A stretch of DNA of 64,000 nucleotides, taken from the IMG/VR virus record IMGVR_UViG_3300017963_000203, positions 1 to 64,000 of that record. One strand, written 5' to 3'. The position numbers were made by a program, and so were the translations under genes. Below the pieces are notes generated by a model that did no database searches, was not told the DNA's origin, and saw nothing but the letters and a program-made list of their open reading frames with translations. This document shows positions 31,782 to 56,879 of this stretch, piece by piece (the first letter of the stretch is position 1; every line of letters begins with the position of its first letter). Source of the stretch: a virus.

Positions 31782-32006
31782 TTACTTGTTCATCTTCTTG
31801 AGAGTCTCGGCGAGACGCGCCCTCTTTCCGAGCTTCCCCGGGGCCTCAGCCGCCCGAGCCAAGGTCTTGGCCGGAATCTTCTTCCCCTGGGGAATGCCGA
31901 GCTGCTTGTGGAGTGCTCCGGGCTTCTTGATCGCCCGCTGGATCCACTTGCCCGCTCCTTGCTTCTCCAATTCGTCGAAGAAGCCGTAGATGAAAGGTGC
32001 GCTCAT
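31782..32006 (-). CDS. small basic virion protein with N-terminal tag
   Basis: FIYGFFDELEKQG then KWIQRAIKKPGALHKQLG..GKKIP...GKLGKRARLAETLKKM, a small basic phage protein type. Confidence 0.8.
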   Translation of the reverse strand: MSAPFIYGFFDELEKQGAGKWIQRAIKKPGALHKQLGIPQGKKIPAKTLARAAEAPGKLGKRARLAETLKKMNK

Positions 32007-32338
32007 CGGTTCCTCCCGAACCAGGTCTTGACTCGCTGAACGAGTCCGGGTTTCCGTTGCCGGAACGACGCGTATCTGCGCCGCATAGGCTTCAGCGACT
32101 TGATCCGTTTTCCAACGTCGCTTGCCATGCTCTTGGCCGACTCCATCACGGACCCGGACTCGATTGGTTTTTCCTCAGAACCACCCCCGGGGGTGGGAAC
32201 TACTTCGACCTGCGGAGCCTTCGTGTAGCCCCTGTATACCTCTTTCAGTTTACTCTGAAGGTCTCGAAGTTCCTTCTTTCCGAAGAACGCATTCTTCTCG
32301 AGCTCATCCAGAAATCCTGTTATGAAAGCTTCGTTCAT
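32003..32338 (-). CDS. tagged basic virion protein
   Basis: MNEAFITGFLDELEKNA tag; basic C-terminus. Confidence 0.75.
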   Translation of the reverse strand: MNEAFITGFLDELEKNAFFGKKELRDLQSKLKEVYRGYTKAPQVEVVPTPGGGSEEKPIESGSVMESAKSMASDVGKRIKSLKPMRRRYASFRQRKPGLVQRVKTWFGRNR

Positions 32339-33483
32339 CAGGCTGCCACGCCGCGACCCTGAATCTTCGCCGCGGTCCTCTTGGCCCACGGAATGGCTGC
32401 ACCCCACCCGCCACCGGGCGGCTTCGCTGCGGGAGGTGCGCCCACTCCTGCGCCGGCCGCAGCCCTGCCCAAGATGCCTGTGGGCTTCGACGGAGGAGTC
32501 CCGGTCGACGGTGTCGAGCCGATTCCCTTCGCCGCGCCCGCCATGACACCTGTGGGTTTCGCTGGCGCGCCGGCCGGACCGCCGCCGGGGCCAAACCTTC
32601 CGGCCGCGATGTTCCGTTCACGGATTTTTGCGCCTGCGGAAGCGACCGATGGAGCAGCGGGCTTCGCCAACGGTTTCGCCGGCGTGGCCGCATCGATCTT
32701 CCGGAACCTGGCCACGTCCTCACGGCCGCTGGCCCTCGCCGCGGCCCTGAGCTCGTTGCGACGCCGGATTTTCTTTCCGAGCGCAGCGAACGGATCGGCT
32801 TTCGGCTGGGCAGCCGCCGGAGGTGCCGTCTTCTTGGCCGCTTGAAGATCCTTCCAGCTCTTTGCTCCCCATCCGGACATGGGCCGGCTGCTGACCTTCT
32901 TTCCGGTATCGGCCACAGCCGGAGCCTTCTTGGGCTGCGCCACGGGAGGTGTGGCCTTCTTCGCTCCGATCTGGCGCGTGCCCACCCCCGGAATGGAGTA
33001 GGTGCCCTTTCCGGGCTTGCCCTTCCCCAGTCCGTGGCGCCCCATGATGCGCTTGGCACGCCCTGTCCGTACACGACCCACCGTGGCCTGGTCGGTTCCT
33101 TTGATGCGTCCGAAACGCAAGGAGCCGCCTTCAGCCGTGGATTTGAAGCCGCCGGTGCCTGTGGTCTTGCCGCCGGTGGCCAAGAGTTTCTTCGCGGCCG
33201 CCTGGCGAGCGCCGCCGATGCTGGCCTTGGCCCGGGACATGAACCGCTGCTTGGCCGCTCCGGAGAGATCCCGCCAGCCGGCGCTCTTCTCGAGCTCGTC
33301 GTAAAGGCCGGCGAAGAAGGCCTCCTCGAGGGAAGACATGGGGCCCTCTTCGTCCTCCGAAGCGAACTTGCTGAAGAACCCCGCCATGAAGATGTCCTCG
33401 GCGGTCGGTGCCGGGTCGGCGGGCGCGTCTGCCGCCTTCTCGAGCTCGTCCACGAGCCCACCCAGGAACACGTCGTAGTTCAT
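32338..33483 (-). CDS. Ala/Gly/Lys-rich virion protein with three N-terminal tags
   Basis: VFLGGLVDELEKAA, IFMAGFFSKFA, AFFAGLYDELEKSA then a low-complexity basic region. Confidence 0.8.
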   Translation of the reverse strand: MNYDVFLGGLVDELEKAADAPADPAPTAEDIFMAGFFSKFASEDEEGPMSSLEEAFFAGLYDELEKSAGWRDLSGAAKQRFMSRAKASIGGARQAAAKKLLATGGKTTGTGGFKSTAEGGSLRFGRIKGTDQATVGRVRTGRAKRIMGRHGLGKGKPGKGTYSIPGVGTRQIGAKKATPPVAQPKKAPAVADTGKKVSSRPMSGWGAKSWKDLQAAKKTAPPAAAQPKADPFAALGKKIRRRNELRAAARASGREDVARFRKIDAATPAKPLAKPAAPSVASAGAKIRERNIAAGRFGPGGGPAGAPAKPTGVMAGAAKGIGSTPSTGTPPSKPTGILGRAAAGAGVGAPPAAKPPGGGWGAAIPWAKRTAAKIQGRGVAA

Positions 33484-36669: not shown

Positions 36670-36670
36670 G

Positions 36671-37346: not shown

Positions 37347-37640
37347 CTACTCCAAGCCGAGGAGTTTCCTCGCGATGGGCACCCACTCGTCCGCCGTTTT
37401 CTCGAGCTCGAAGTTGACCCCGGCCTTGAAATTGGGGTCTTCCATGATCTGCTCGACCGGCATGGAGGTGAGCGACGCCACCTTCTGGAGGCCCGGGAAG
37501 ACGTCCTGCACGTCGGCGTCGAGCCGGCCCTGGGCCTCGAGCTCCGCGCCTCGTGCGGAAGCGAGCTTCTCGGGGTCCGCCCCCGTGATGGCGATGAGCT
37601 CCATCTGGAGCCTTTCTTCCGCCGTCATTTCTCCGTTCAT
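37347..37640 (-). CDS. small acidic virion/assembly protein with KxA sites
   Basis: EKLA, QKVA, FKAGVNFELEKTA. Confidence 0.7.
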   Translation of the reverse strand: MNGEMTAEERLQMELIAITGADPEKLASARGAELEAQGRLDADVQDVFPGLQKVASLTSMPVEQIMEDPNFKAGVNFELEKTADEWVPIARKLLGLE

Positions 37641-39348: not shown

Positions 39349-39978
39349 TCAATCTCTGGTAAAACTGATCGTAATCTCTATTCCTTCGTCGTCGGCCAAG
39401 GCCTCCCTTGGATCTTCTGTGGCCTTTTTCCACTCCCCAGGGGGTGGGCCAACGGCGTCGTAGATCACAAAATCGCCCTTCACGAAAGCGATCGGACCCG
39501 CGCCGAAGTTGACGGCACCGGCATCCTTGGCGTAGAAGTACTGCTTGTCGGAGCCGACCCCATTCACAAGCGTTGGCGTATTGGTCGAGGCTGCCCAATC
39601 CCCCAAATACCTTCCGGCGCTTCCTTTGTCCGTTCCGAGCCTGATGGGGGTCACTCCCTTCCAGCTCGACAAGTATCTGGGATTGTAGGGCTTCCTGAAA
39701 TAAATGTTGGTCGCTGCCGGATCGGGTGGCACGGGAACCGCGATGCGGACCTGGCCGAGAGGTAGTCTCGATGGAGGCTGGATTACATGCCACGTCCCCA
39801 CTGTCCCGTACCAGCTCCACCACATCCGCTGAAAGGGGGCGCTTCCGCGATGGATCTCTGCGTGCGTACTGCCGGCAATGATCGCCACCAGTGTGTCGTA
39901 CCGAGCGTCGAAAGCCGCCTGCATGTCCGCGTTGGGGTTGCCGAGAACCGTGATGGTGCCTTGCTGCTCCGTAGGCAT
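39349..39978 (-). CDS. virion structural protein, paralog of 39989-40378 with an inserted domain
   Basis: Shares GNP..MQAA, HRGSAP.QRMWWS, RKPYNPR with its neighbour; insert YLGDWAASTNTPTL...GDFVIY. Confidence 0.75.
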   Translation of the reverse strand: MPTEQQGTITVLGNPNADMQAAFDARYDTLVAIIAGSTHAEIHRGSAPFQRMWWSWYGTVGTWHVIQPPSRLPLGQVRIAVPVPPDPAATNIYFRKPYNPRYLSSWKGVTPIRLGTDKGSAGRYLGDWAASTNTPTLVNGVGSDKQYFYAKDAGAVNFGAGPIAFVKGDFVIYDAVGPPPGEWKKATEDPREALADDEGIEITISFTRD

Positions 39979-39988: not shown

Positions 39989-40378
39989 TTAGTCCTGTGT
40001 GAAGGTCACGACGATCTCGACGATCCTATCGTCCGCCTTCCCACGAAGATCGGAGTAGACAGGAATGAGATCCTTCCGCTCTTCCAGGTGCCGCGGATTG
40101 TACGGCTTTCGAAGATAGAACTTCGTAGCACCGGCGAGAGCGACTCTGAGCGGCCCCATGGGCAGCCGAGAAGGTTCCTGAATCGGGAACCATTCGTTCG
40201 CGAGCCCAGTGAAGCTCCACCACATCCTCTGCCACGGAGCGCTTCCACGATGAACTTCCACGTGTGTGGCACCAGCAGGGATCGTAACCTCGGTGTCGTA
40301 GGTGAGATTCACAGCCGCCTGCATGTTCACGTCCGGATTTCCGTGGACCGAAACGGTCCCTTCGACTTCGACCGGCAT
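39989..40378 (-). CDS. virion structural protein (paralog pair)
   Basis: See paralog; AGGAG RBS. Confidence 0.75.
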   Translation of the reverse strand: MPVEVEGTVSVHGNPDVNMQAAVNLTYDTEVTIPAGATHVEVHRGSAPWQRMWWSFTGLANEWFPIQEPSRLPMGPLRVALAGATKFYLRKPYNPRHLEERKDLIPVYSDLRGKADDRIVEIVVTFTQD

Positions 40379-41494: not shown

Positions 41495-42750
41495 GACGCC
41501 TCCTTTGATCTCCTCGTGAGATGAGCGAATTGAATCGAGCCACTCAGGAGTCCCTTCGCCTTTGGGACATCCGTCGTGCGTTTCTTGCCCGATACAAGTT
41601 TACGCCCGGTCTCGAGACGAAGGAACGGATTCTTTCTGAGGACCGGGCTTTTCTTCACGTTGGGATCCAGAAGCATCTTCGCGCCGGCGGCAAACTTGTC
41701 GAGGTACGATGCCTTCTTCTCCTGGCCCGTTCTTCGACGACCCTGGAGCCACTGCTGGATCTTACGACCGAGCAGCGCGCCCCCAATCGTGCCGCCCAGG
41801 GCGCCAATCCCAGGAGCGATTCCTGACGCTCCGGACATGCCTCGACGTGCGAGCGCGTCACCGACAGCACTCCCGGCAAGGCCGCCACCGATCATCCCTG
41901 CTGGAGCGAGGGCTGCACCCGGAAGACCTCCGACAGCGCCACCGCCACCAGCACCCAGGCCGAGGAGCATCATCAGTTCGATGAGCGTGAAGCCCTTCTT
42001 CTCGAGCTCGTCCTCGAAACCTTGCAGGAAGGCGGTCTTCTTCATCCTTCCGAATCTCCTCACGCGCGTCGTCTTCTCGATCATCACACCGCTGGGCGTG
42101 GGCTTGAATTCGGACTTGAGGGTCTCCCATCCCTCATTTCGAGGGCCCAAAGCGATGTCCTTGTCGCTGAATTTCTGTCCCCTGAAAACCCTGGCCACCT
42201 CCTCCTCAGACCCCTGTTTCTTCATGCGCTCGATGTCCTTCGTGTCCTTCTCGCGCCCCATTCTACGCTTGAAGTCCAGGGTCGTGGGAACGTCCCAGTG
42301 CTTGAGGCCGCGAAGCGTGGTCGTGGGCACGTTGCTGAAGTCACGACCACCGACGTACCACCGACCGGTGAAGACGGTGATCGGGCCGTAGTTGGTCCTG
42401 ATGGTGAGCATGGGGGAGCCGATTGGACTCCGCCCCGGGACTGCGCCGGGAAAGGAGGACATCTTCTTGAACGCTTCCTCCGGTACCTGAACGTCGAGAT
42501 CGTTGATCTCTCGCAGGCCCAAAGCGCCGAGGAGTGCGCTCCCCCCCAGGACCACATCGCTCTTCGGGACGCCGGCATGAGCCAGGATGCGCTCGAGCAT
42601 GGCCGTAAGCTGGATGTACTTCGTCGCCTGGCCCTTCTTCTCCATGCGCCTTCTCCGTCGTCGCTTGGGGATGATCTTCCGGACAGCCTGCATCATGTCC
42701 TGGGCCGTGTCCGGGTCGAACCGTCGCCGATGCTTCGGGTATCGTGGCAT
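41491..42750 (-). CDS. modular virion polyprotein: nucleotidyltransferase domain + pilin-like/glycine-zipper segment
   Basis: GGSALL...REINDLDV and GREKDTKD NTase motifs (42211-42630); AFLQGFEDELEKKG|FTLIELMMLL; modules bounded by Kx[AG]. Confidence 0.75.
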   Translation of the reverse strand: MPRYPKHRRRFDPDTAQDMMQAVRKIIPKRRRRRRMEKKGQATKYIQLTAMLERILAHAGVPKSDVVLGGSALLGALGLREINDLDVQVPEEAFKKMSSFPGAVPGRSPIGSPMLTIRTNYGPITVFTGRWYVGGRDFSNVPTTTLRGLKHWDVPTTLDFKRRMGREKDTKDIERMKKQGSEEEVARVFRGQKFSDKDIALGPRNEGWETLKSEFKPTPSGVMIEKTTRVRRFGRMKKTAFLQGFEDELEKKGFTLIELMMLLGLGAGGGGAVGGLPGAALAPAGMIGGGLAGSAVGDALARRGMSGASGIAPGIGALGGTIGGALLGRKIQQWLQGRRRTGQEKKASYLDKFAAGAKMLLDPNVKKSPVLRKNPFLRLETGRKLVSGKKRTTDVPKAKGLLSGSIQFAHLTRRSKEAS

Positions 42751-42837: not shown

Positions 42838-44028
42838 TTACACCACGGCCGGCAGCGCCGCCTGGAGGTTGTCGTTGATGATGGTGAAGTTCCCGGCCGA
42901 GGCCGTGACGCCCGCGGGCGTCTGGAACGTCACCGGCAACGTCATCCTGGCTCCCTTGAGCAGGATGGCGCCGAGGGCGCGGATGTTGCCGAAGCCGGCC
43001 CCGACGTCCTCCCAGGCCTCCATCTCGATCCAGCGGCTCCGCTTGTCGATGAAGAACTTGGTGTTCTCCAGGACCATGAAGCGGCCGATGAACTCGGGGG
43101 CCGGGAACACGTAGATGACGCCCGGCTCGACGAGGTCGTCGTTGTCCCGGATCGTGGTCACGAAGGTGTAGCCGCCCACGGTCGTGTACTTGTACCCGTC
43201 GCGGACGATCTCGCTCGTGATCTCGAGGCCGGCCTCCGTCAGCGACCACGCGACGGTGTCGGTCCAGGTGACCTCGTGGAGGAGGAAGGTACGCGCCTTC
43301 TGCTGGCGCGCGGCGGGGATCTTCACGAGGTCCTTCAGGACCACGCGGTTCCAGTCGTCCTCGTCGGAGAGGATGATGTTGGAGTAGATCGCGTCCGCCC
43401 GGTTGAGGTTGGCCGTGGGAATCGGGGCCCACGCGCCGGCGCCCTTGGCCCTCTGGAAGAGGAAGCGCATGAACTCGGCCTGATCGCCGAAGTTCCTCGT
43501 GCCGCCGGCGACGACGCCGCGCTGCACGAGCTTGTTGTAGTTGTACCGGGTGCCCAGGAAAAGCCCCGACTTCACGTGCTGCATGAACGTGAAGTCCTCC
43601 TGCTCCTGGATGTCCTTGGCGATGTTCTGCTCCAGGATCTTGGTGAGGGGCATGCGGTAGGAGCGGAGCTCCTGCTCGGACTTGATGATCTTGTCCGAGG
43701 AGATCGTGTGAAACACGATCTTGTACCGCGGAGCCTGGATGTAGGTCTTCTCCGGCTCGCCGCGCCAGTTGATGTGCATGGCGATGGAATCCGGCTCGAG
43801 GTCGTCGATGTACTCGAGACCTTCGTCCTCGATCCTCCGCTGGCACTCCTTCTCCGTCACGACCTTCGGAGGCAGGATCTTGCGGCAGAAAGCGTTCTCA
43901 CGGAGCTTCTGCTGGATGTACAGGCCGCTGGCCTGTCCGAGCTTCGTGAGCGCCTCGCCGCCGACCTCGAGGGTCTGCCCGAACAGCGTGTTGAACTGCT
44001 CGGCGTTGAACGCGCCCGTATCCGACAT
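42838..44028 (-). CDS. major capsid protein
   Basis: 396 aa, strongest codon bias, AGGAGG RBS, KLRENAFCRKILPP, DIQEQED..F, own terminator; follows protease/scaffold genes. Confidence 0.8.
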   Translation of the reverse strand: MSDTGAFNAEQFNTLFGQTLEVGGEALTKLGQASGLYIQQKLRENAFCRKILPPKVVTEKECQRRIEDEGLEYIDDLEPDSIAMHINWRGEPEKTYIQAPRYKIVFHTISSDKIIKSEQELRSYRMPLTKILEQNIAKDIQEQEDFTFMQHVKSGLFLGTRYNYNKLVQRGVVAGGTRNFGDQAEFMRFLFQRAKGAGAWAPIPTANLNRADAIYSNIILSDEDDWNRVVLKDLVKIPAARQQKARTFLLHEVTWTDTVAWSLTEAGLEITSEIVRDGYKYTTVGGYTFVTTIRDNDDLVEPGVIYVFPAPEFIGRFMVLENTKFFIDKRSRWIEMEAWEDVGAGFGNIRALGAILLKGARMTLPVTFQTPAGVTASAGNFTIINDNLQAALPAVV

Positions 44029-45282: not shown

Positions 45283-45756
45283 TTACTCCTCCTCGGCGGA
45301 TTCCTCGCCGAGCTCGAGCAGGATGTTGGCCGCCAAGCGGCCGAGCTGCTCGGATTCCTCGTCCGAGGCGACCTTCTCCAGGTCCTCCTCGGAGATGCCC
45401 GCCATCTGGAGGGCCTCGCCCGCGAGGGCGCCGAGCTCCGCGAGCTCTTCGGCGGCTTCCTTGGAGAGCTCTTCTTCGCCCTCCTCGACGCCCGCCGTCT
45501 TCTCCTCGCCCCCTTCGGGCTCGGAGTGCGCCGCGATGTGCTCTTCGACCAGTTGGGCCGCGGCCGACAGCATGCCCGAGTCGGACATGGGGGCCACCTC
45601 GCCGTTGGCCTCGGCCACCTTCAGCAGGTCGACAGCCTCGTCGAGGAGCTGCTGGCGGAGCTCGTCGCCTTCGTACGCGGCTTCGATGGCCGCGAGCTTG
45701 ACGTTGAACTCCTGCTGGTCCAGGGCCTGGACGATGTCGCTGAGTCTCGTCTCCAT
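45283..45756 (-). CDS. acidic scaffold/core protein
   Basis: Very acidic; VKLA, LKVA, EKTA, SKEA, EKVA. Confidence 0.65.
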   Translation of the reverse strand: METRLSDIVQALDQQEFNVKLAAIEAAYEGDELRQQLLDEAVDLLKVAEANGEVAPMSDSGMLSAAAQLVEEHIAAHSEPEGGEEKTAGVEEGEEELSKEAAEELAELGALAGEALQMAGISEEDLEKVASDEESEQLGRLAANILLELGEESAEEE

Positions 45757-45850: not shown

Positions 45851-46270
45851 TTAGCCTCCGCGGGTCTCCGCCGGGTTCGGGTTCTTGGACTGCGGGGGAG
45901 CCACCGCGCCGTAGGTCACGTTGGGGTTGGCCCCCTCGATCTTCTTCTCGGTGACCCCGCCGCCCCCGGTCTCGCCGATCGTGGCGCCGGCCGGCCCCGC
46001 GCCGTGGCGCTCCTGGACCTTCTTGGCCACGTTCTTGAAGACCGACTGGTCGTTTTCGGGGTTGGCCTGGGAAGACTCGACGGTGCCGCCTTCGGCCGCC
46101 GTCTTCTTGAGTTCCGCGACGAAGCCCTTGGCGAACATGCGCCCGCCGGCGAAGAGGTCTTCCGCGACCTTCATCATGGGATCGTCGGCCTTGCCGGCGG
46201 AAGCGTTCTTCTCCAGGCTCCCGTCGGTCTCGAGTTCCTCGAGCAGACTGTCGATGTTGATGCCGTTCAT
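45851..46270 (-). CDS. head core protein with tag
   Basis: LEKNA, MKVA, MFAKGFVAELKKTA. Confidence 0.7.
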   Translation of the reverse strand: MNGINIDSLLEELETDGSLEKNASAGKADDPMMKVAEDLFAGGRMFAKGFVAELKKTAAEGGTVESSQANPENDQSVFKNVAKKVQERHGAGPAGATIGETGGGGVTEKKIEGANPNVTYGAVAPPQSKNPNPAETRGG

Positions 46271-46283: not shown

Positions 46284-47819
46284 TCAAACCTTTTTCATCT
46301 TCAACCCGACCAGGAAAGGCGTCACCGGCCGGAACCTGTCACTCGCAGTTTTAATCCCCGCCAAAGCATTTTCAACCGCGTCGGGGTCACGAATCAGCAA
46401 AGTTTTCTCTGCTGCTTTCACCAGGTCTTCGACATCCAGTCGCCCGAGTGCTTCCAGGTACTTGTCGTAGACTTCGCTTGCCCCCTTGTCAAGAGCCGCC
46501 CCCGGCTTTGGTCCTGAGATTCTTATAATCCTGACCACGCGTTTGGCAAATGGCGGATCAAACAAACTCCTGCTCGGGATCAACTCTTTGAACTTCGATA
46601 GGAGTCTGGGGAGTACTGAATCCAAGTCAAGTCGTTCCGGAACTTTCTCCGAGTCTCCCTCTGTGATGATCTCCACTTCGGGTTTCTTGAGAAGGATACC
46701 CGATGCTGTTGCGCCGTTAAAGATTTCCTCCGGAGACATCGTTTGGCGCATCGATTTGAGGGACACGGCCGGAATGCACCTCGACGCGTTGTCATCCTCT
46801 TTCACGAGGTTCGAGAGGATTTTCTGTGCCTTCGGCTTGAGCAGAGTCTTGCCGAGATTGTCCTGGCCAGGTTCGGCTGGGACTTCTTTGCTGATCTCGC
46901 CAAGCTTGAAGATCGTTCTTTTCTTTCGCATGGATTCCTGCGCCGAGGCAACCTTCACGAAGTCGACACTACGAATGGTGTAATCTTCGTGACGTTGGAC
47001 AACCGTGGGGTCGGCTGTTGGAAGATGAACGCCGGCGACTTTTCGAAGGGAATACGCTGGAGCGAATGCTGGCGTGATTACTCTCGAAATATCGAAGAAC
47101 CTCGGGAACCAGTTTTCTGCCGCGACCTTTCTTCCGTCTGGAAGCGTGACGTTCAACAGCGTCCGAAGATGCTCACAGTACTGGTTCCGATTCTTCGCCA
47201 CATTCTTGCAGATGGAGCAAACGTCGAACGCGACCTTGCAACCCATGGACCACGGAATGGGCTCACCACGGTCGATCATGCCCACGAGATCCGGGGCGGA
47301 AAGACCAACGCCGTCCCTTGGTGGATCCTTTCGAATGAAAACGATGAGCTCTCCGCGGCGCATCTTCTCGTTGTATGCCGCGCAAATCACCTTCTCCCCG
47401 ATGGAGAACTTCGGGTCTTTGTTGTTGTGAAGGACGAACGGGTAGGCATAAGTCTCGAAGGTGCTGATACCGTACTCCGGAGGAATCGGACGGCCGGTCT
47501 TTCTGAGGAACGCCTGGATGTCCGGAGGGGGCGGCTCATGAAGGAGAGACCACTCCCAGAAGCTGTCGCCGTTCTTGTTGCTCCCCCATGCCTCGGTAGC
47601 ACCCACGGCGTTGATGTGCACGTATCTACCGTCTTCCCTCGGAGAGAGGGAGGCCGCAGCTTTGATGAGACGCTCCGGAATGTAGACCTCGGACGCTGTC
47701 TTCTCGAAGACGCGCGAATGGATCGGGAGATAGGACGGGCCCCACCTGGCATCGTATGCGGGGGCCACGTGCTTCTCCATCTCCGGAGAGAGGATCAGAT
47801 TTGCTCTCTTGTCGATCAT
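46284..47819 (-). CDS. prohead maturation protease
   Basis: NKNGDSF, His (VLHNNKD), Ser (WSMGC), CSIC..CEH Zn insertion, FFDISRV..PA; upstream of scaffold/capsid genes. Confidence 0.75.
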   Translation of the reverse strand: MIDKRANLILSPEMEKHVAPAYDARWGPSYLPIHSRVFEKTASEVYIPERLIKAAASLSPREDGRYVHINAVGATEAWGSNKNGDSFWEWSLLHEPPPPDIQAFLRKTGRPIPPEYGISTFETYAYPFVLHNNKDPKFSIGEKVICAAYNEKMRRGELIVFIRKDPPRDGVGLSAPDLVGMIDRGEPIPWSMGCKVAFDVCSICKNVAKNRNQYCEHLRTLLNVTLPDGRKVAAENWFPRFFDISRVITPAFAPAYSLRKVAGVHLPTADPTVVQRHEDYTIRSVDFVKVASAQESMRKKRTIFKLGEISKEVPAEPGQDNLGKTLLKPKAQKILSNLVKEDDNASRCIPAVSLKSMRQTMSPEEIFNGATASGILLKKPEVEIITEGDSEKVPERLDLDSVLPRLLSKFKELIPSRSLFDPPFAKRVVRIIRISGPKPGAALDKGASEVYDKYLEALGRLDVEDLVKAAEKTLLIRDPDAVENALAGIKTASDRFRPVTPFLVGLKMKKV

Positions 47820-48799: not shown

Positions 48800-49729
48800 C
48801 TACTTGCTGCGGCCCGGGGTTCTTGCTCGCGCACTCCCACCACGCATCTCGATGATGGTCGGCGCGTGAATGGTCGTGCCTTTCTGCCTCGGCCCGAAGT
48901 TCTTCGCCACGTCGAGCATGGTGGTGGCCATTTGGTTGACCTGGCCCTGGGTGGTGCGCTCGATGTTTCCGCTCTGATTCTCGATGTCGAGCAGCTCCTT
49001 GATCATGCCCGGCTGGATGAGATCCGGGCCTGTCTCGTGCCACCGCTTCATGAGATTCCCCGCGAGAATCGGATTCTGGGCCACGTGCGGGGCGAAGGTC
49101 GTGAGAATCTGAAAGTAATGGCCCACGTTGGGGTCGTTCCTCAGCTCGGGATGCTGTCGGAGGATCCTGGTGAGCGAGTTCTTCAGATTGCCTGACTGCG
49201 TGATGGCTTTCACACCGGAGGCGATGACCGGAGCGGCGACGCCGCTGAGGGCCATGGCCGCCATGATCGGCTGCCAGTTCTTTCCCCACCACTGACCGCC
49301 TCGGACGATGCCTCCTGGCTTGCCAGGAGTGCCCTTGCCATGCCACGTGTACTTGGTGCCCCTACCAACTCCTCGACCCACATCCTTCAACGCCTGGAGC
49401 ATCTTGTCTGCGATGCCGGCAGTCTTCTCGATGTGAGGGGACAATTTCTCGAGAGCCGAGAACGCCTCCTTCGTGATGTGCCGGTCGACGGCCGCGCGCT
49501 CGTGGTCTTCTCCACGGAAAGCGATATAGGTGGTGACGCGGCCGATCTTCTCGATGAGATCGTCGGACGCGTAGGCCAGGTGCTGCTCGACGAGGCGCGA
49601 CATGCCCTCACGATCCCCAGCCTGGGCGCATTTCAGCATCCCGGCCACGAACTTGCCGATCTCCGCGCGCTCGTCCTCGTTGAAGTTCCGCTCGTTGTAA
49701 AGCGCAGCGAATTTTTCGAAGATGGACAT
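48800..49729 (-). CDS. internal virion/ejection protein (putative)
   Basis: EKFA, LKCA, EKIG, TKEA, EKTA then amphipathic and TM-like segments. Confidence 0.7.
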   Translation of the reverse strand: MSIFEKFAALYNERNFNEDERAEIGKFVAGMLKCAQAGDREGMSRLVEQHLAYASDDLIEKIGRVTTYIAFRGEDHERAAVDRHITKEAFSALEKLSPHIEKTAGIADKMLQALKDVGRGVGRGTKYTWHGKGTPGKPGGIVRGGQWWGKNWQPIMAAMALSGVAAPVIASGVKAITQSGNLKNSLTRILRQHPELRNDPNVGHYFQILTTFAPHVAQNPILAGNLMKRWHETGPDLIQPGMIKELLDIENQSGNIERTTQGQVNQMATTMLDVAKNFGPRQKGTTIHAPTIIEMRGGSARARTPGRSK

Positions 49730-49738: not shown

Positions 49739-50992
49739 CTACATCTGGAAGGGCGGCGCGTAGGCCTGGTTCCCGTAGAACGAGCCAACCGGGGCCTGCG
49801 GCCCTTGGACCTGAGCCTCAGGACTCCACCCTGCCCGGCCCTCACGCCCGAACGCGCGCCCGAAGCCTCGACCCACCGCCTTGAGAATCGAAGGACCGAA
49901 GAGGAGGGCAGCCAGAAGTGGAACCCCACCGCCGACCATGGCCGTACCCTTTCCCATCCTCCAGGCCTTGCCCAGGACACCGGACTGCTTCACGGGCGCC
50001 TTGGTCGCCGCCGCGATCTTTCGGATCTCGACAACCTTGTGGAAGAGGTCCTCGTCCGCCATGCTCGACGCCTTCTTCGCCAGGTTCTCCACCTCCGACA
50101 TCAGGTACTCCTGCGTGTCCAGGTTGTCGGTGAAGGAGTTCGTACCGACTTCGACCGGGTCCGGAGCGTCGTTCAGCATCTGGATCGCTCCTCGAACGGA
50201 GTCGGTCTCGCTGATTTTCTTCCGGAAGGTATCGAGGTCCACCTGGAATGCGTGGCGCCCGTTGATGACCTGCCACTCGCCGTTGGGGATCTCCACGTTC
50301 TGCGCGAGGATCTTCTTGTCCACGGGATGGCCGAGCTTGGTCAGATCGTCCTTGACCGCCTCGAAGACCTTGAGCCAGAGCCGATCGTTCCCTGGGAACG
50401 CGGCGCAGGCGTACTTCATGAGATCCTGAATCTCGCCGCCGTCGAGAAGGACGTGGTTTCGCGCTTCCTCCCGAATCTTGGCGTAGGCCTTGTGCGTGGC
50501 GTCCTCTGATGCCTGCTTCTGGAGGGCCAGCTCACCAACCCTCTTTCGAAGCTCAGAGAGGACGACACCGGCGCTGTGCTCGGCGCGCTTCTCCATGAGC
50601 TCCTCGGCTTCCTTCACGAACGGACGCGCGCTGGCGACCTTCTCGATCCCCTCGAGAACGGTCTGCTTGAAAGCGGACTCGTCCCGCATGGGCTCGAACA
50701 CGGACATGACAGAGGCCGTTTTCACGGTACTGGCCTTGTCGGGATGCAGGATTGCCTGCACGCCGGCCAAGGATGCCAACGGGAAAGTGAACGTCTTGTC
50801 GCCAGCGGTCTTGAACAGACGCTCGTTGGCATCCAGATTCGTGAGCTCCACGACTCTCTGGATCTGGACCGGCGAGAGATTGTTCTTCTCGGCGAGCTTC
50901 GCGATGGTGTCGTTGAGTGGCACGTTCTTCTCTACGAACTGCTCCGAGGCCATCTTGGCGAAGTCGGCGAAACGGATCGGATTGATATCCAT
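49739..50992 (-). CDS. internal head protein
   Basis: KLAEKNNLSPVQIQRVVELTN; many KxA sites; C-terminal TM-like GGGVPLLAALLFGP. Confidence 0.75.
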   Translation of the reverse strand: MDINPIRFADFAKMASEQFVEKNVPLNDTIAKLAEKNNLSPVQIQRVVELTNLDANERLFKTAGDKTFTFPLASLAGVQAILHPDKASTVKTASVMSVFEPMRDESAFKQTVLEGIEKVASARPFVKEAEELMEKRAEHSAGVVLSELRKRVGELALQKQASEDATHKAYAKIREEARNHVLLDGGEIQDLMKYACAAFPGNDRLWLKVFEAVKDDLTKLGHPVDKKILAQNVEIPNGEWQVINGRHAFQVDLDTFRKKISETDSVRGAIQMLNDAPDPVEVGTNSFTDNLDTQEYLMSEVENLAKKASSMADEDLFHKVVEIRKIAAATKAPVKQSGVLGKAWRMGKGTAMVGGGVPLLAALLFGPSILKAVGRGFGRAFGREGRAGWSPEAQVQGPQAPVGSFYGNQAYAPPFQM

Positions 50993-51001: not shown

Positions 51002-51889
51002 CTATCTGATGGATCCCGAAAGCGACGTCTTCCCGATCTGTTTCGAGATCGCGGCCGGCCCCTCTCCCTTCGGGATCGGGCCGATGATCTGCTTTCGGAT
51101 GGCTTTGCTTCTCTTCAGCCGCGTCTGTAGATTGCCGTTTGGAGGGCCCGCCACCCTCTGGTTTGGGGCCATCTGAGGGGTTGGCATCTTGGGTCTCATG
51201 CTCTTCGGGAGAGACGCGCCAACCTTGTCAAGCTCGTCCAGGAAGCCGTCCAAGAAGGCTTCAGCGGCGCTCTTGCGGAAGAACTGGCTCACCCCGGGGA
51301 CTTTGACGCCCTTCGAGATTGCCGACCGACTCCGCGAAAGGGCCCTCTCGGAGAACCCGCCCTTCGGCGCCAGACTACTGGGCAACTTGGTCTTGGCCAT
51401 GACCACCCGTGGAATTCTCTCTCCCTTGGGTCCGGTGGTCTCCGGGTACACCTCTTTCACAGAGACCTTGCCCCCAAGACGATGCGCTCGCTGAGCAGAT
51501 TCACGCTCGACTGGATGCCAACCACCGCTCCTCAACTTCTTCCCCTGCTGCATGAAGCTGGAGAGTCCGCTCTCGGCTTCCTTCTCGATACCGGCGAGAA
51601 ATCCAGCGGTAAACGCCTCCTCCGCCTGCTTGATGGTGGAGTTCTTAGCCCTCGTCATGAAGACGTTCTTGTTGATCTTGGGCTCCTCAGGGCCTTTCAC
51701 GCACTTTCCACTGTCGAAGGTCAGCTTGTTGGGCTCCTTGCTTGGAAGGTCCGGCTTCTCCTTCGAGTCGTGACTCGGCGCTCCCTGAGAGGCGTTGACG
51801 TCGGCTTGAGACGGAAGAACGCCGCCGGCCCCCAGCCGATCCTCTGCCATCTTGGCGAATCTCGCCAGAAGATCCTCGTAGGTGATCAT
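51002..51889 (-). CDS. tagged modular virion protein
   Basis: KQAEEAFTAGFLAGIEKEA and KSAAEAFLDGFLDELDKVG separate basic modules. Confidence 0.75.
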   Translation of the reverse strand: MITYEDLLARFAKMAEDRLGAGGVLPSQADVNASQGAPSHDSKEKPDLPSKEPNKLTFDSGKCVKGPEEPKINKNVFMTRAKNSTIKQAEEAFTAGFLAGIEKEAESGLSSFMQQGKKLRSGGWHPVERESAQRAHRLGGKVSVKEVYPETTGPKGERIPRVVMAKTKLPSSLAPKGGFSERALSRSRSAISKGVKVPGVSQFFRKSAAEAFLDGFLDELDKVGASLPKSMRPKMPTPQMAPNQRVAGPPNGNLQTRLKRSKAIRKQIIGPIPKGEGPAAISKQIGKTSLSGSIR

Positions 51890-51942
51890 GCTCTTCTCCG
51901 TCAAATGTAGTCCTCTAAGGTTTACTCAGGGGACCCATGATT

Positions 51943-53820
51943 TCAAGACCGAACAGCCGGAACGATCGTCCTGGCGTAGTCCCCGTAATACTGCTTGGCT
52001 GCCAGCCAGCAGTACATCGTCGCCTGAAAAGCATCGTCGGGGAGCGTGTGGTCGTAGCGCATGGTCTGATGATAGTCGTCGTACTCGATGAAGATCGAGG
52101 TGAAGTCGTCGATCATGGGCATCTTGGGGCTGGGGTCGTTCTTCATGAGTTCGAAGCAAGGGAACCGGATGCGGGCCTTCTTGATCGTGTCGATCACATC
52201 CCGCATGTTCTGGAACCGGTCGATCAGGTATCGGCCGTACTTGCCCGCCTTGGGATCGAACTTCACAAGGGCGCGCTGCTGCGTGGACTGGAACTCGAGC
52301 AAGACAGGATCCGGTGTGCCCACATCCACCGGTTTCCACCCGTAGTTGTCCACGAGGTGCTCGTTGTTGATGTGGCCGAAACCATAGTCCGATCCGCAGA
52401 AGGCCACCTGGAACTGCCTGGCGAGCTTGTCGAAATGGAAGGGCTGCTGAACCAGGTCCGATTTCTCGCCCAGGTACTTCTCCATGTAATGAATCCGGAA
52501 CTTCTCGTCGGCGCCGAACGTACCGACGACCACCACGGTGAACGCACGTTTCTTCCTCTTCTTCCCCTGCGTGTCCGTAGATCGAAGACCGGTACCGTGG
52601 TCGATGCCCATGAACATCGGCCGCCCTACCCGGCGAAGACCATCTGGACGGTCCCACGACTTCCGCTCCTCCTCGCAGGCATTTCGGATGTCCTGTTCGG
52701 TGAGGACAAGCTCGCCCTCCTCGCTGGGGAGGCCGAGCGCTTCATTCTGGAAAATGGAGAAAGGGACCTCTGGATCGTGGAGTTTGGAGTGAACTCGCTT
52801 GAATGACTGGAAGGGGACCTGGATCTGGCTGATCCTGAAGCCGAAGCTCTCGTCCAGCTTGCTCGGCCGCATGGCCACCCACTCACCGCCGAAATCATTC
52901 GGGTCCCGCGGATTCTTGTGCTTCTTCGGAAAGATTTCCTTCCCGCATCGCGTGCAGATGAAGAAGAAGTCGCCGATGACGTTTTCGTCCAGGTAGTTCC
53001 AGTGAGAGCAGTGGCTGCACTTGACCATCCACTCGAACTGGCTCGTCTGATCGTAGCGCCTGGGCAGCACGTTCATCTTCGACTTTGGCGTCCCCGTATA
53101 GATCCGGAAGAACCGATCTGGTAGGGCGTGTGACTGGGTCTCCTCGATAACGGGAATTTCGTCGGAGATGATGTCCTGAATCTCGTCGATGTTGACCAGA
53201 TCGGCCGAAACACCGCGAGTGGCGTCGGCTGTCAAATAGCAGGATCGAAAGTTCGCATAGGCTCCGTTGTTGAACTCCTTCATCCCCACCTGCCAGATGT
53301 TCATGGTGGAGAGCATCTCAGCAGCAATACGCGGAGAGTCCTCAGCGATCTTCTTGAAACGCTGCTGGCTGAAGACGGAGACCTGGCTGAACCTGGGCTG
53401 GATGAACAGGGCCTTCATGTTGGGCATGGAGGCCATGAGGGCGATGGACTTACAGGCCGCGGTCGTGCTCTTCTCGCACTGCCGAGCCCACATGAGCACC
53501 ATGTTCCGCGAGCCCTCTGGATGCTTGACGCTCAGGTCGTAGATGGGTTTGAGGTAGGAACGATCGTGACGAATGACCGAGCCGTCCATCTGCTTGATGT
53601 GATCGACGTATCGGAACGGCCAGCCCTTCTCGACGTGGATGATTTCCGGAATGAGATCAGAGAGTGTGGTTACATCCCGTGTAGCCTCTTCATCGTAGAG
53701 AGACTCCTGCTCTGCCTCCCCCATGCCGATGATCAGATTTCCATCTTCGTCGACGAAGTTAATCTCTCGAGGATTGACCGTGCCGTCCTCGATAAACCAG
53801 CCGTCGTTATGACCTGCCAT
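51943..53820 (-). CDS. terL: terminase large subunit
   Basis: ARQCEKST Walker A, RG.SAD...IDEIQD, GTPK, CSHC..CTRC, NEALGLP, nuclease GIDHG, DDAFQA. Confidence 0.9.
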   Translation of the reverse strand: MAGHNDGWFIEDGTVNPREINFVDEDGNLIIGMGEAEQESLYDEEATRDVTTLSDLIPEIIHVEKGWPFRYVDHIKQMDGSVIRHDRSYLKPIYDLSVKHPEGSRNMVLMWARQCEKSTTAACKSIALMASMPNMKALFIQPRFSQVSVFSQQRFKKIAEDSPRIAAEMLSTMNIWQVGMKEFNNGAYANFRSCYLTADATRGVSADLVNIDEIQDIISDEIPVIEETQSHALPDRFFRIYTGTPKSKMNVLPRRYDQTSQFEWMVKCSHCSHWNYLDENVIGDFFFICTRCGKEIFPKKHKNPRDPNDFGGEWVAMRPSKLDESFGFRISQIQVPFQSFKRVHSKLHDPEVPFSIFQNEALGLPSEEGELVLTEQDIRNACEEERKSWDRPDGLRRVGRPMFMGIDHGTGLRSTDTQGKKRKKRAFTVVVVGTFGADEKFRIHYMEKYLGEKSDLVQQPFHFDKLARQFQVAFCGSDYGFGHINNEHLVDNYGWKPVDVGTPDPVLLEFQSTQQRALVKFDPKAGKYGRYLIDRFQNMRDVIDTIKKARIRFPCFELMKNDPSPKMPMIDDFTSIFIEYDDYHQTMRYDHTLPDDAFQATMYCWLAAKQYYGDYARTIVPAVRS

Positions 53821-54835
53821 CAGCCAACTGCCCCTGAATCTCCGCGTTGATGGATTTGAACTCCCTGTCGGAAGCGACGATGGAAATGTTCTGGAAGAAC
53901 GAGCCACCTTGGACAGGCTTGTCCACGTCTCCGCGCGTCACACCCACCTTGGTGTAAGAGTTGAGGTGCTGGTGAACGTGCTTGAATCCTTCCCCCTTCA
54001 TAGCCAACGTCGCGAGAATCTTCTTCTCGAGATCGACAGCCACGATGCGCAGCGTCTCCTGGAAGTGAGGCTCCTTCCCTTCGCGAATACGCAGTTCGCC
54101 TGTGGTCATCCCCCTGGCTTTGCTCTTCGCCTTCCTCTCGGTGGGTAGGATGATGCCCAGGTAGTACCGCCAGTCACGCTCGGTCATGGGCGCGATGTCG
54201 TAAAAAACAGACATGTAGAGGTCGAGCGCCACATTCTTCCACTGCTGTCCGGAGAGCTCCTCCATAGCGGCCTGATGGTCGGCCCGGGTCCCTCGCGTGG
54301 TCACAACGCTCTCTATGATGTTCTTGGTTTTGGCGTCACCCAGGAACGAAAAGAAATTATCCATCCACAAGGGGTTCGAATACGGGACGATGACGCCGAT
54401 GACCCGAAGGAGCATCTCATAGGCGCCTTTCTGCTTCGCCGACGGAGCCTTGCGTTTCTTCACCGTGTCCTTGAGTTCCTTCGGGATCCTGGACAGGAAC
54501 CGCTTCTCGAGCTTCTTGTAGTAACCGAGCCCGAACTTGGGGGACGCGAGGTTGCGCTGATGGATCTCGGCCACGGCCTCCTTCTGTGGTGTGGTGAGGA
54601 ACTTGAGGCAGAGGAAACGGTGGAACGGAAGAATGTGGCCGTTCTCGCGCCCGCTCCCCCCGAAACTGTAGATGTGATTCTTGGCGCATCTGAGGATGAA
54701 GTCGTCGCGTGGATCGATCTTGTAGAGGATGCGGCCGTGTTTCGCCTGCGGCTTCGCCTTCAAGAGATCCTGGACCTCATTGAAAGTGGCCGGCGAAATG
54801 CCGTACTTCTCGCAGATTTGGACTCGTGTAATCAT
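53807..54835 (-). CDS. hypothetical DNA-binding protein (terminase small subunit candidate)
   Basis: N-terminal HTH-like TRVQICEKYGISPATF; directly upstream of terL. Confidence 0.5.
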   Translation of the reverse strand: MITRVQICEKYGISPATFNEVQDLLKAKPQAKHGRILYKIDPRDDFILRCAKNHIYSFGGSGRENGHILPFHRFLCLKFLTTPQKEAVAEIHQRNLASPKFGLGYYKKLEKRFLSRIPKELKDTVKKRKAPSAKQKGAYEMLLRVIGVIVPYSNPLWMDNFFSFLGDAKTKNIIESVVTTRGTRADHQAAMEELSGQQWKNVALDLYMSVFYDIAPMTERDWRYYLGIILPTERKAKSKARGMTTGELRIREGKEPHFQETLRIVAVDLEKKILATLAMKGEGFKHVHQHLNSYTKVGVTRGDVDKPVQGGSFFQNISIVASDREFKSINAEIQGQLADGRS

Positions 54836-55335
54836 CGCATGTGAATGACGTACTCTGTCTTATCATAACCAAACAGAGAATTTTCCAAAGCCTTTCGGTT
54901 TGAAGATGGCGTAGATCTGATGTGCTCCAGGTTCGCAAAAAGGTGAGATTCGACCCCATCGTCGAGAATCGAGGCCATGAACAGGCCGCCACCTTTTTTC
55001 TTCACGACGATGATTTCCACCTCCCCGTACATCTCGGCCAGGTCACGCCACAAGTATGCCCAGTCGTCTGAACGACCGCACCCGGAAGCCGCTGTGATCC
55101 ACGGCCGCTGAGAGAACCCGAACCACCGCAACGAGACTTCGTCGCAAGAAAACCCGCGCTGATCCATATCGGAAGACACGAGGCCCCAACGTGGAGCGCG
55201 GGTCCGCAGATACCGGAGGACCCCGAGACCACGGTGCTCAATATCGCTTGAGAGCCACGCCTGAAACGCCGATGGAATCACGCCCCAGGCTGGTCTCACG
55301 TAGCGAAACCAGGCGCTGGTGATCAGACGTATCAA
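54832..55335 (-). CDS. hypothetical protein
   Basis: Coupled at both ends. Confidence 0.55.
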   Translation of the reverse strand: MIRLITSAWFRYVRPAWGVIPSAFQAWLSSDIEHRGLGVLRYLRTRAPRWGLVSSDMDQRGFSCDEVSLRWFGFSQRPWITAASGCGRSDDWAYLWRDLAEMYGEVEIIVVKKKGGGLFMASILDDGVESHLFANLEHIRSTPSSNRKALENSLFGYDKTEYVIHMR

Positions 55336-56879
55336 CCCTCGCTTTCCATGATGGTGTGGCTGTACTGCCGCAGGTCACGTTCCGCGTTGTCCAAGGCGTA
55401 CATGGCCGTCTTCAGGGGCTCCTGGGAGACGGGCAGGCCCAGCCTCGACGCCAGGAGGAGTTTCGCGCACGCCTCCTTCGCCTGACCGAGCTTCTCGATC
55501 TGGTCCACGAACTTGTAGGCATTCTCCTCGGTGATGAAGTTCAACCCGAGCATGGCGTCGACGGTGTTCTTCGCCTCGTCGTCGTCCACGTCCAGGGCGA
55601 TCTTCACGAATTTCTGGCCGTCCACCGTGGAGAGGGGCAGCCACTTGCCGCTCACCGGCTGAACGAAGGCTGCCTCTTTCATGAGGTTGGGGTAGGAGCC
55701 TCGGAACGCCGGTCGCGGCTGTTCCTTCGCGCTGGCGTCTTTCTCCATGGTCACGGGCTCGTAAGAACCGAGCTTCGCCATCTTCGAGCAGGGAACGAAA
55801 GACCAGTCCTGGCTGATGAAGAGACCACCCTGGTCGTCCATGTGGATGTTCTTGATGTTGGGCGAGACGTGAATCTCCCGCGTGCCGTAAATGGAGTCCA
55901 CCGCGATCTTGTCGATGCCGCCCGGCATCGTTGCGCGACCCACCACTTTCACGGGCTCGGTGGCGATGATGCTTCCGTTCTTCTGGAGAACGAAGGCGCC
56001 CCACCCGTTGGGGTCCTTCCCGAAAGAGGCGGTCTTGTCGAGGGCCACCTCTTCACCGAAGATCGGGTCGCTGGCGTAGTAGTACCGATCTCCGCCGAGT
56101 TCGAAGACGCCCATGACGCCGTCTCGCACCTTCCCGTCCAGACCGAAGATGTGATCGGCCACGATGCACGTGGTGTCTTCGTTGCCCATGGCGACCTTGA
56201 AGACGCCGGCCTTCGTGATCTGAGGCTTCCGGATCTTCACCGGGAGCGCCTTGCGCTTGAGCATGTCCGTGGCCTTGGGGCCGGCCACTGCCGACGTCTT
56301 CTCGGCCTCTTTCGACGCACGAGCATTGTCGGCGAAGACCTGGCGGAACGAGGCGTTCTTTCGCATGGCCCACTCGAGCGCTTCCTGAGATCCGAAGGCG
56401 AGCTGGGCTTCCCTCTCGAAAGACTCGAAGGGAAGGTCGATCTTGGCCGCATAGACGTAACGGCCATCGTAGGGCGGCTGCGTCCGGGAGAAGAGGGCCA
56501 TGTCGCTCGCGGCACCCTCCCCGGGCTCCACGGGCTTGCCCAGGGTCGTTCCCTGAACGATCTCCTGGAGCGACGACTTGGTGAGCGGATGGAGCCTTCC
56601 GTTCACCCAGAAAACGTCGAGTGGGGAGAGGCGGAAGTTGTCCACCACGAGAGGGATCGATACCTTGTCATCGAGCTGGATCTGCCCGACGCCGGCACCG
56701 TTCTCCGCGTCCACCCGGTTGAAGTTCACCTGGACCTTGGCGTTGGCGAGCCACGGATAGGACTGGTGGAGGAACTTCACCACCTCCTGCATCCACTCGT
56801 CCGGGTTCTTGCTCAGCTTGACGTTGGCTTCCTTCTCGAAGGTGCCGAGCACTTTCTCCGTGATGAAGAGATTTTCCAT
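55332..56879 (-). CDS. internal virion protein with many KxA sites
   Basis: EKEA, SKEA, DKTA, DKIA, EKDA, MKEA, VKIA; TVDAMLGLNFITEEN. Confidence 0.75.
   Translation of the reverse strand: MENLFITEKVLGTFEKEANVKLSKNPDEWMQEVVKFLHQSYPWLANAKVQVNFNRVDAENGAGVGQIQLDDKVSIPLVVDNFRLSPLDVFWVNGRLHPLTKSSLQEIVQGTTLGKPVEPGEGAASDMALFSRTQPPYDGRYVYAAKIDLPFESFEREAQLAFGSQEALEWAMRKNASFRQVFADNARASKEAEKTSAVAGPKATDMLKRKALPVKIRKPQITKAGVFKVAMGNEDTTCIVADHIFGLDGKVRDGVMGVFELGGDRYYYASDPIFGEEVALDKTASFGKDPNGWGAFVLQKNGSIIATEPVKVVGRATMPGGIDKIAVDSIYGTREIHVSPNIKNIHMDDQGGLFISQDWSFVPCSKMAKLGSYEPVTMEKDASAKEQPRPAFRGSYPNLMKEAAFVQPVSGKWLPLSTVDGQKFVKIALDVDDDEAKNTVDAMLGLNFITEENAYKFVDQIEKLGQAKEACAKLLLASRLGLPVSQEPLKTAMYALDNAERDLRQYSHTIMESEG

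Follow-up and report, generated by a model that had tools for sequence, protein, structure and literature searches.

A recurring peptide tag and a Lys-containing short site in the late proteins of an IMG/VR phage: a candidate capsid-loading propeptide and its predicted prohead protease

Why should one short peptide recur in a series of otherwise unrelated late proteins of a phage? The question is raised by the first 64 kb (hereafter, the window) of a 130,894-bp IMG/VR virus record, IMGVR_UViG_3300017963_000203, which has a CheckV completeness of 68% and a G+C content of about 60%. The plus strand carries the genes of the first 30.9 kb or so, and the minus strand those from 30,996 onward; minus-strand proteins are here termed late and plus-strand proteins early. 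The peptide, written xxAFxxGFxDELEKx[AG] and referred to below as the tag, is probably a loading propeptide comparable to the capsid-targeting sequence (CTS) of phage T4 and removed by the head protease predicted at 46284-47819. An initial annotation of the window had proposed a modular address-tag/protease system of this kind. What it led one to expect in silico—tag, protease fold, site, and multi-tag proteins—is all present, and the model as a whole appears partly supported.

Copies and carriers of the tag

A hidden Markov model (HMM) was built from 14 copies of the tag. Searched against the entire record in six-frame translation, it returned 18 matches of 14.1–30.9 bits, all on the minus strand, with the next best at 4.7 bits. 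Plus-strand open reading frames (ORFs) of the record gave no match, which agrees with the first impression that the replication arm lacks the full tag, and each motif copy originally listed was recovered in frame, on the minus strand, in the ORF to which it had been assigned. The 18 copies are spread over 14 proteins: nine are inside the window, which has a degenerate copy besides, and nine are outside it. Tagged genes beyond the window comprise a tandem run of three small ones (72979-74158), the single genes 104708, 108763, and 112473, and a gene for a 946-residue protein (119588-122428) with three tag copies and a degenerate fourth. The "virion module" of the window, to which the tag had been confined, is therefore too narrow.

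Nine copies stand at the N-terminus, at or within three residues of the start codon, and a Shine–Dalgarno-like sequence precedes most of these starts. The other nine are internal, and all nine have K.[AG] within the 19 residues that precede the tag, a feature of 0.22 of random windows; the second upstream KxA reported earlier is thus a regular feature, and excision on both sides is therefore possible. When the 14 proteins were compared by blastp with their tags masked, no mutual matches appeared at E≤1e-4, in keeping with the description of the carriers as otherwise unrelated. The tag accordingly presents one feature of a T4-type CTS, namely one short peptide common to otherwise unrelated proteins and placed N-terminally. 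Identity among the copies at the DNA level averages 0.55, and the same codon is used at identical tag residues in a proportion of 0.55, which is also the expectation from codon usage. These figures rule out recent DNA duplication as the origin of the copies, and the similarity of the tags is therefore held at the protein level.

With the tag removed, 12 of the 14 cargoes have an isoelectric point (pI) of 9.4–11.7 and contain 16–29% Lys+Arg; in 50 untagged late proteins, the median pI is 5.07. The two acidic tagged proteins are encoded in the head and neck gene rows, and some cargoes have hydrophobic, glycine-rich stretches. Most of the cargo, which had been called diverse, is small and very basic rather than enzymatic.

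Within the window, where every copy is on the minus strand, the series begins with MSAPFIYGFFDELEKQG at 31950..32003 (30.0 bits), the N-terminal tag of a 74-residue ORF (31782-32006) whose ATG follows a Shine–Dalgarno-like GGGAGG. The cargo here is a very basic peptide (pI 11.7), and PHROG profiles 20603 and 15706 begin on this protein at residues 19-20, right past the tag. ORF 32003-32338, with a basic cargo of pI 10.7, carries MNEAFITGFLDELEKNA as its N-terminal tag (32282..32335; 28.1 bits). Three elements occur in ORF 32338-33483, a protein of 381 residues with a basic cargo rich in A, G, K, and P (pI 11.6): a first, N-terminal tag at 33424..33477 (22.1 bits), the degenerate IFMAGFFSKFA at 33364..33396 (2.7 bits only), and the internal tag EEAFFAGLYDELEKSA at 33274..33327 (26.2 bits), for which the degenerate copy provides the upstream K-x-A (KFA). 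The copy at 37386..37439 (24.0 bits) has LQKVA upstream. An acidic ORF of 139 residues (45851-46270), between the protease and a scaffold-like gene, contains GRMFAKGFVAELKKTA at 46091..46144 (23.2 bits) and has orthologues in nine related loci; three such proteins, the window's own among them, group together by blastp. Directly downstream of the large terminase gene, the basic 300-residue ORF 51002-51904 has a first tag, EEAFTAGFLAGIEKEA, at 51569..51622 (20.7 bits; upstream IKQA) and a second, AEAFLDGFLDELDKVG, at 51212..51265 (23.7 bits; upstream RKSA).

The remaining copy in the window, KTAFLQGFEDELEKKG at 41986..42039 (23.3 bits), lies within ORF 41491-42777. It ends in K-K-G and is followed at once by a pilin-like hydrophobic segment, FTLIELMMLL, and then by a glycine-rich hydrophobic stretch. 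An internal Met three residues ahead of the tag, with a Shine–Dalgarno-like GAGGAG upstream, suggests a nested start within the ORF. The orthologue in a relative of 79% identity (L025) retains both the tag and the hydrophobic segment (KKG↓LTIIELL).

Outside the window, the weakest copy (14.1 bits) is without the K-x-[AG] end (DELDVQLS); it belongs to a basic protein of 273 residues (112473-113294) with a C-terminal SET domain (Pfam, E 4.9e-7). In the 946-residue protein, the first tag (residues 152-169) falls between a DUF5661 domain (105-148) and a rubrerythrin-like domain (193-264), and the full order is DUF5661, tag, rubrerythrin-like domain, tag, a basic segment with a hydrophobic helix, tag, and 30-residue repeats. 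After the third tag come two copies of the 30-residue ACATPGEKIRSKGKG repeat, the degenerate tag, and a basic glycine-rich tail. The three tandem tagged genes (72979-74158) lie directly upstream of a portal candidate, and in relatives G001 and G003 tags occur 1–2 kb upstream of the portal gene.

One of these tandem genes, 73593-73919, belongs to a widespread family of phage proteins of about 100 residues that share a conserved K-N-K-V-P-L-T-P-E-E-R core behind variable leaders ending K-x-A; the family has no Pfam or PHROG match. Its 77 small database homologues (P0121-P0197) differ in what precedes the conserved domain. In 55 of them a leader with K.[AG] lies shortly upstream of the domain (49 of the 55 also have the hydrophobic residue), and 22 are without such a site; the median length before the domain is 26 residues in the former and 16.5 in the latter, and these naked homologues begin near the end point of the others' leaders. 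A full tag (≥12 bits) is found in only seven of the 77. The same cargo therefore comes in three forms (fully tagged, preceded by a minimal leader, and naked), and PHROG starts, domain borders, and leader variants together show the tag to be, by all appearances, a separable add-on.

Among cultured phages, those closest in capsid protein and protease are Salmonella phage Arash and the Vibrio phages D69, D148, and D181 (38–44% identity with partial protein coverage), with Bacillus phage G more distant. At least 528 IMG/VR contigs have a protease relative, and 80 loci (1.38 Mb) were kept for family tests. A DNA pattern for F-x-x-G-F-x-D-E-L-E-K, scanned over 2.9 million viral contigs, gave 13 stretches, of which eight, from six contigs, are tag-like, several being runs of consecutive small genes that start with the tag. 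Four of these contigs were searched whole and yielded 3–8 tag matches each; all four have the portal candidate, three have this phage's protease and capsid protein, the fourth being a fragment of 31% completeness. In 13 of the 80 loci, from more distant relatives, the neighbourhood of the protease has variants such as M-N-x-F-x-x-G-F-A-D-E-L-x-K-x-[AG], and across all loci 47 tagged ORFs form 37 similarity clusters. In 596 Gb of bacterial and archaeal genomes, the same DNA pattern gave 56 stretches, 44 of them with at least 9 bits to the tag HMM. Nearly all of these 44 are internal to unrelated cellular proteins, mostly without A/G after K-x, and no protease homologue was found in the 56 loci (2–8 kb each); the tag is therefore a feature of the phage lineage and not a general cellular signal.

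The short site and the predicted prohead protease

The tag ends in a shorter motif, hydrophobic-[E/D]-K-x-[A/G], which was counted with the tags removed and compared with shuffled sequences. As [LIVMF][ED]K.[AG], it occurs 21 times in the late proteins of the window against 2.7 expected (about 8-fold, z 10.3; reached by none of 300 shuffles) and 30 times against 6.4 in all late proteins, as opposed to 7 against 6.1 in early proteins; the reversed motif is flat. Bare K.[AG], which the initial annotation took for the site and described as dense, is raised weakly in the late proteins of the window (120 against 97.4; z 2.5) and barely in late proteins genome-wide (238 against 226.7; z 0.8). As a definition it is too loose, since the signal needs a hydrophobic residue two positions before the Lys.

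Among the 80 related loci, hydrophobic-x-K-x-[AG] exceeds z 3 in the same-strand ORFs of 72 (median z 5.8); opposite-strand control ORFs do so in 2 of the 80. For this motif, Arash and D69 score z 4.9 and z 5.3 in their head regions, and the scaffold-like proteins adjoining the protease in these two phages contain 8–10 short sites each. The pooled ratio of observed to expected counts is 2.46 for hydrophobic-x-K-x-[AG], with 1.09 for its reverse, 1.10, 1.08, and 1.03 when the Lys is replaced by Arg, Glu, or Gln, and 0.99 when A/G is replaced by Ser/Thr; the ratio is 5.6 for [LIVMF][DE]K.[AG] (0.87 for its reverse) and 6.3 for [LIVMF].K.A[SAG]. Because the reversed and substituted controls are flat, the signal is directional and residue-specific, and an origin in mere helical periodicity or composition is ruled out.

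The logo of the site has M/L/F/I at P5, E at P4, K at P3, T/V/I/L at P2, A (74%) or G at P1, and S at P1′, with information near zero outside P5–P1′; in relatives, the acidic residue before the Lys is swapped for T, V, N, S, or Q. The T4 head protease follows the rule L/I-x-E, with Glu at P1. A Glu-terminated cleavage motif (hydrophobic/small-x-E) is not what the logo displays, the conserved positions being K (P3) and A/G (P1).

The predicted enzyme for this site is encoded at 46284..47819 (minus strand), where a protease had already been proposed, and is recognised by fold matches, PHROG 18299 (E 2e-4), and conserved sites. Its relatives number 306 at E≤1e-5 among 8,000 scored candidates, and H131 and S191 are invariant in 36 aligned sequences, down to 28% identity. 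In the AlphaFold model (predicted local distance difference test [pLDDT] 76.9), strands and helices form a well-predicted domain at about residues 59-262, followed by a disordered linker (267-323) and a helical C-terminal domain (329-511). An exhaustive structural search (VIA-align) placed T4 gp21 first (5jbl_A; Z 9.5, root-mean-square deviation [rmsd] 2.8, 130 aligned) and the protease of varicella-zoster virus (VZV) second (1vzv_A; Z 9.3, rmsd 3.6, 119 aligned), these two standing 3 Z units above the third row. The third row is the protease of human cytomegalovirus (HCMV; 8j3s_A, Z 6.3), that of Kaposi's sarcoma-associated herpesvirus (KSHV) scores Z 5.7, and the first unrelated fold, 6kz3_A (Z 6.1), is likewise 3 Z units below the top two. 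Foldseek of the same model against the PDB gave no match at E≤0.001 and placed herpes proteases only at ranks 46 and 48, and a sequence search against PDB chains with the protease, ORF 55332, and the portal candidate (both described below) returned nothing meaningful.

In gene order, the protease lies in the head module upstream of the scaffold and capsid genes, as it does in Arash and D69. Its homologue in phage G, gp19, identified here by tblastn, is annotated as a head maturation protease in the available part of the source (PMC12484599). Because of the fold matches to T4 gp21 and VZV protease and the annotation of gp19, the predicted identity of 46284-47819 as a prohead protease of the gp21/assemblin fold is well supported.

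Three candidate self-cleavage sites are present in the protease: FEKTA↓S (38-42, within the disordered residues 1-43), LRKVA↓G (258-262, at the end of the catalytic domain), and LDKGA↓S (443-447, in a disordered loop some 64 residues before the C-terminus). Conservation of the first two extends down to about 28% identity, and the third is kept in close relatives. Of 70 relatives, 67 have K.[AG] in the aligned protease segments, compared with a background of 0.22 for equally long windows, the domain-border form being K-[VI]-A at 260-262. A search for covariation between the protease site and the capsid-protein site found no informative clade that loses one and keeps the other; a clade seemingly without the capsid-protein site has it a few residues upstream. 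Co-folding of protease residues 44-511 with the first 40 residues of the 31782 protein, run without controls, scored 0.00 and bears neither way.

The protease family has further features of its own. A Cys/His cluster (C201, C204, C215, and H217) is invariant or nearly so and may form a metal site inserted in the gp21/assemblin fold. Close homologues of about 860–890 residues match the intein/homing-endonuclease families PF14528, PF05203, and PF14890 (P0002, P0010, P0011, P0013, P0022-P0024, P0027, P0035, and P0043), suggesting that several homologues have inteins within the head protease gene. PF18823 is found at the C-terminus of more distant homologues.

Loading, processing, or docking

If the tag is a loading propeptide, it would be a portable element of about 16–18 residues in two parts. 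The first part, F-x-x-G-F-x-D-E, is predicted to be helix-prone and moderately amphipathic and would dock into the assembling prohead core, like the T4 CTS; the second, L-E-K-x-[A/G], would be the recognition site of the head protease, which would cut on the C-terminal side of the small residue. Inside the prohead, N-terminal tags would be removed, and internal tags, with a site on each side, would be excised so that multi-module proteins are split into separate cargoes. The cargo, mostly small and very basic, would be fit to lie alongside the packaged DNA, and it also takes in hydrophobic glycine-rich proteins, the SET-domain protein, and the DUF5661 and rubrerythrin-like protein.

Targeting propeptides and head-protease processing are, in general, already known. 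The T4 CTS is described, in the part of the source available, as the sole conserved part of the internal proteins, and it encapsidates diverse internal and foreign proteins (PMC3012670). It resembles the tag in being a short conserved peptide at the N-terminus of diverse, mostly basic proteins and in ending at a head protease site, putative in the case of the tag, and T4 gp21 shares the fold of this phage's protease. The peptide itself differs, and the site conserves Lys and a small residue rather than Glu at P1. Moreover, this phage tags more proteins (14), and some of its tags lie inside multi-module proteins with a site on either side. Phage SPN3US, of the phiKZ type, offers a second likeness: its protease gp245 cuts itself and removes short and long N-terminal propeptides (some of 20–24 residues) from head and ejection proteins at A-x-E (PMC10052503). 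Here the motif differs, about 80% of head proteins are uncut, and the available part of that source mentions no shared address peptide.

A third comparison is with the herpesvirus protease precursor pUL26, in which assemblin cuts after Ala at the release and maturation sites of the protease-scaffold precursor; in pseudorabies virus (PrV), these are YLQA-T (R-site) and VQA-S (M-site), according to the part of the source available (PMC4498786). The fold matches to the VZV, HCMV, and KSHV proteases are joined by a common layout in the model of the phage protease (N-terminal protease, disordered linker, and helical C-terminal domain), the x-A sites at the protease-domain end and about 64 residues from the C-terminus parallel the R-site and the M-site of PrV, and the phage site likewise prefers Ala at P1 and Ser at P1′. 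By contrast, P3 (Lys) and P5 (hydrophobic) are the conserved upstream positions of the phage site, and the Cys/His cluster is conserved in the phage protease family. By this analogy, the processing rule would resemble that of herpesvirus assemblin more than the Glu rule that T4-like and phiKZ-like phages follow. The literature searched contains no description of this tag or of a K-x-A rule for the clade that includes the cultured phages, nor of bracketed internal cassettes or a pUL26-like phage protease layout, and the available portion of the report on Arash virions analysed with liquid chromatography–tandem mass spectrometry mentions neither protease nor cleavage.

Several points weigh against loading and release as proposed. 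Both cleavage and packaging are inferred, and the scissile bond could fall after the A/G or after the K, between which the sequence cannot decide. Some short sites lie in predicted strands or helices, for example residues 322-326 and 461-465 of ORF 55332, and may go uncut. The amphipathicity of the tag core is only moderate, with a mean hydrophobic moment of 0.49 against 0.28 ± 0.14 in shuffles, a value reached by 7.6% of them. Genes 104708, 108763, 112473, and 119588 stand in tail- or fibre-looking clusters and not beside head genes. A search of the whole Arash record (D69 was not searched) gave no full tag, although the short site is present. Finally, the capsid protein and other head proteins have the short site and not the long tag, which makes any partner of the tag's front half a hypothetical one.

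This last point bears on the alternative that the tag is only an extended protease-recognition or propeptide element, its front half serving as an exosite or as a temporary inhibitor or solubiliser, while the cargo arrives by binding DNA or scaffold. All the short-site evidence would apply equally to such an element; the capsid protein, the protease, and ORF 55332 must enter the prohead and yet carry the short site only, and the 73593-73919 cargo has homologues whose minimal leaders are without the F-x-x-G-F part. It is nonetheless an unlikely account, since 14 unrelated proteins share an extension of 10 conserved residues, an invariant Gly and two aromatic positions among them, which exceeds what the logo needs. 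Removal of a 16-residue N-terminal peptide has no obvious purpose besides targeting or masking, and masking is difficult to envisage because the net charge of the tag, about −3, cannot mask proteins of 16–29% Lys+Arg.

Could the tag instead be an uncut, permanent docking helix that binds a repeated site in the virion, such as the inner capsid surface, the portal, or a DNA-bound core, with K-x-[A/G] as the binding interface? Short conserved helices can serve as binding modules, and multi-tag proteins could bind multivalently. The motif is, however, conserved in the disordered borders of the protease (1-43, after 262, and 434-444) and in the leaders of ORF 55332 and the capsid protein, which is how processing sites, rather than one common binding surface, would be distributed; leader-less homologues of the 73593-73919 cargo begin near the leader ends of the others; and a second site brackets all nine internal tags. 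Permanent docking is thus improbable.

Type IV prepilins have Gly at −1 and, after the leader, a hydrophobic helix with Glu at +5. The copy at 41986-42039, with K-K-G before FTLIELMMLL, has Gly at −1 and Glu at +5 and is the only one to resemble a prepilin (KKG↓FTLIELM), so the tags as a set do not follow the rule. That the host reads the tag, whether as an extended prepilin-type leader or as some other signal for export or sorting that sends proteins to its envelope, is very improbable indeed, given that the other eight window copies and six tagged proteins outside the window have, by eye, no comparable hydrophobic segment after the tag, that nearly all of the 44 prokaryotic stretches with a tag-HMM match are internal to unrelated proteins with a protease homologue in none of 56 loci, and that the viral tag-like stretches come from six contigs of which at least three share this phage's protease and capsid protein.

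The loading-propeptide reading can be extended, tentatively and with the balance tilted against it, to a large, mostly uncultured clade (the ≥528 IMG/VR contigs together with Arash, D69, and, distantly, phage G). Its members would share a head-maturation code, hydrophobic-E-K-x-A↓S, with a herpesvirus-like cut after Ala, to which one branch would have added an excisable address cassette. If so, the cassette could be placed at any N-terminus or between the modules of a polyprotein, and its cargo would be loaded into the capsid, released there, and then delivered to the host at infection. This chromatin-like cargo would comprise DNA-coating basic proteins, a SET-domain methyltransferase, a ferritin/rubrerythrin-like module, membrane-active glycine-rich proteins, and a peptide whose processed end mimics mature pilin.

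The contents of large-phage heads that are injected with the DNA are mostly unknown, and they decide early host takeover and counter-defence. With a tag and site rule that predicts the internal and processed proteome, annotation alone could answer the question for a clade of 528 or more metagenomic contigs. Phage and herpesvirus maturation would gain a further link from a gp21/assemblin-fold protease that favours Ala/Gly at P1 and is laid out like pUL26, and a short excisable loading tag would also be of practical use, like the T4 CTS, in packing capsids with foreign proteins.

Head-module genes and neighbours

The minus-strand block contains genes for the large terminase, the major capsid protein, a neck/tail-completion-like protein, and a fused RNA polymerase β/β′. 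The major capsid protein (42838..44028, minus strand) is assigned by PHROG 2522 (E 6e-6) and a tblastn match to the annotated major capsid protein of Arash. Its short site, ALTKLG↓QAS, occupies residues 26-31 (43936-43953) before a YIQxKLRE block, and nearly all of about 70 relatives have the site some 25–31 residues in, just before Y-I-x-x-K-L-R-E. That the capsid N-terminus is itself a tag is ruled out by the tag HMM, which scores at most 4.3 on 70 capsid proteins.

Between the capsid and protease genes, an acidic scaffold-like protein of 157 residues (45283..45756, minus strand) has the site EDLEKVA↓SDEE and homologues in 14 related loci; its position and composition suggest the putative scaffold role. 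A conserved head-module protein of 417 residues (49739..50992, minus strand) contains two short sites and a C-terminal hydrophobic segment. It has homologues in 52 related loci, including Arash gp220 (E 1.3e-4) and a D69 protein (E 1.3e-5), both of which contain 10 hydrophobic-x-K-x-A sites. Adjacent to it, a 309-residue protein (48800..49729, minus strand) has four short sites, a hydrophobic segment, and homologues in 48 related loci.

ORF 55332 (55332..56879, minus strand) encodes a protein of 515 residues. It opens with a conserved leader of 18 residues that ends in FEKEA↓N, and it has a further four short sites; the leader site is kept in 16 of 20 homologues. In its model (pLDDT 65.8), residues 1-17, 281-286, and 372-431 are disordered and hold three of the five sites. 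A fold search matched only its C-terminal helical hairpin, to generic coiled coils. Its candidacy as the portal was set aside, as PHROG 64 and Atlas portal clusters favour 71099-72982 of the record (PHROG 64, E 5.8e-7; Atlas clusters named portal, 0.98). This portal candidate has no similarity to the 615-residue protein in the portal position of Arash (gp218), and a zinc-ribbon-like insertion, CPAC...CTKC, is found near its residue 120.

The large terminase subunit (51943..53907, minus strand) matches PHROG 675 (E 5.8e-51) and Pfam GpA_ATPase (E 5.5e-11). At the end of the window (58318-64000, the gene extending to position 64512 of the record), a late-strand ORF of 2,064 residues fuses RNA polymerase β-like and β′-like domains, with matches to Rpb2_6 (E 3e-53) and Rpb1 domains 1–5. 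A packaged polymerase is possible because the RNA polymerase β subunit is the most detected protein in an Arash virion preparation, as given in the available part of that report (PMC10585845). Two adjacent genes, 39349-39978 and 39989-40378, form a tandem duplication with differing middle parts; they share a near-identical N-terminal half (MP.E..GT..V.GNP...MQAA...) and a C-terminal ...I.V.FT.D, and the first matches PHROG minor tail protein families.

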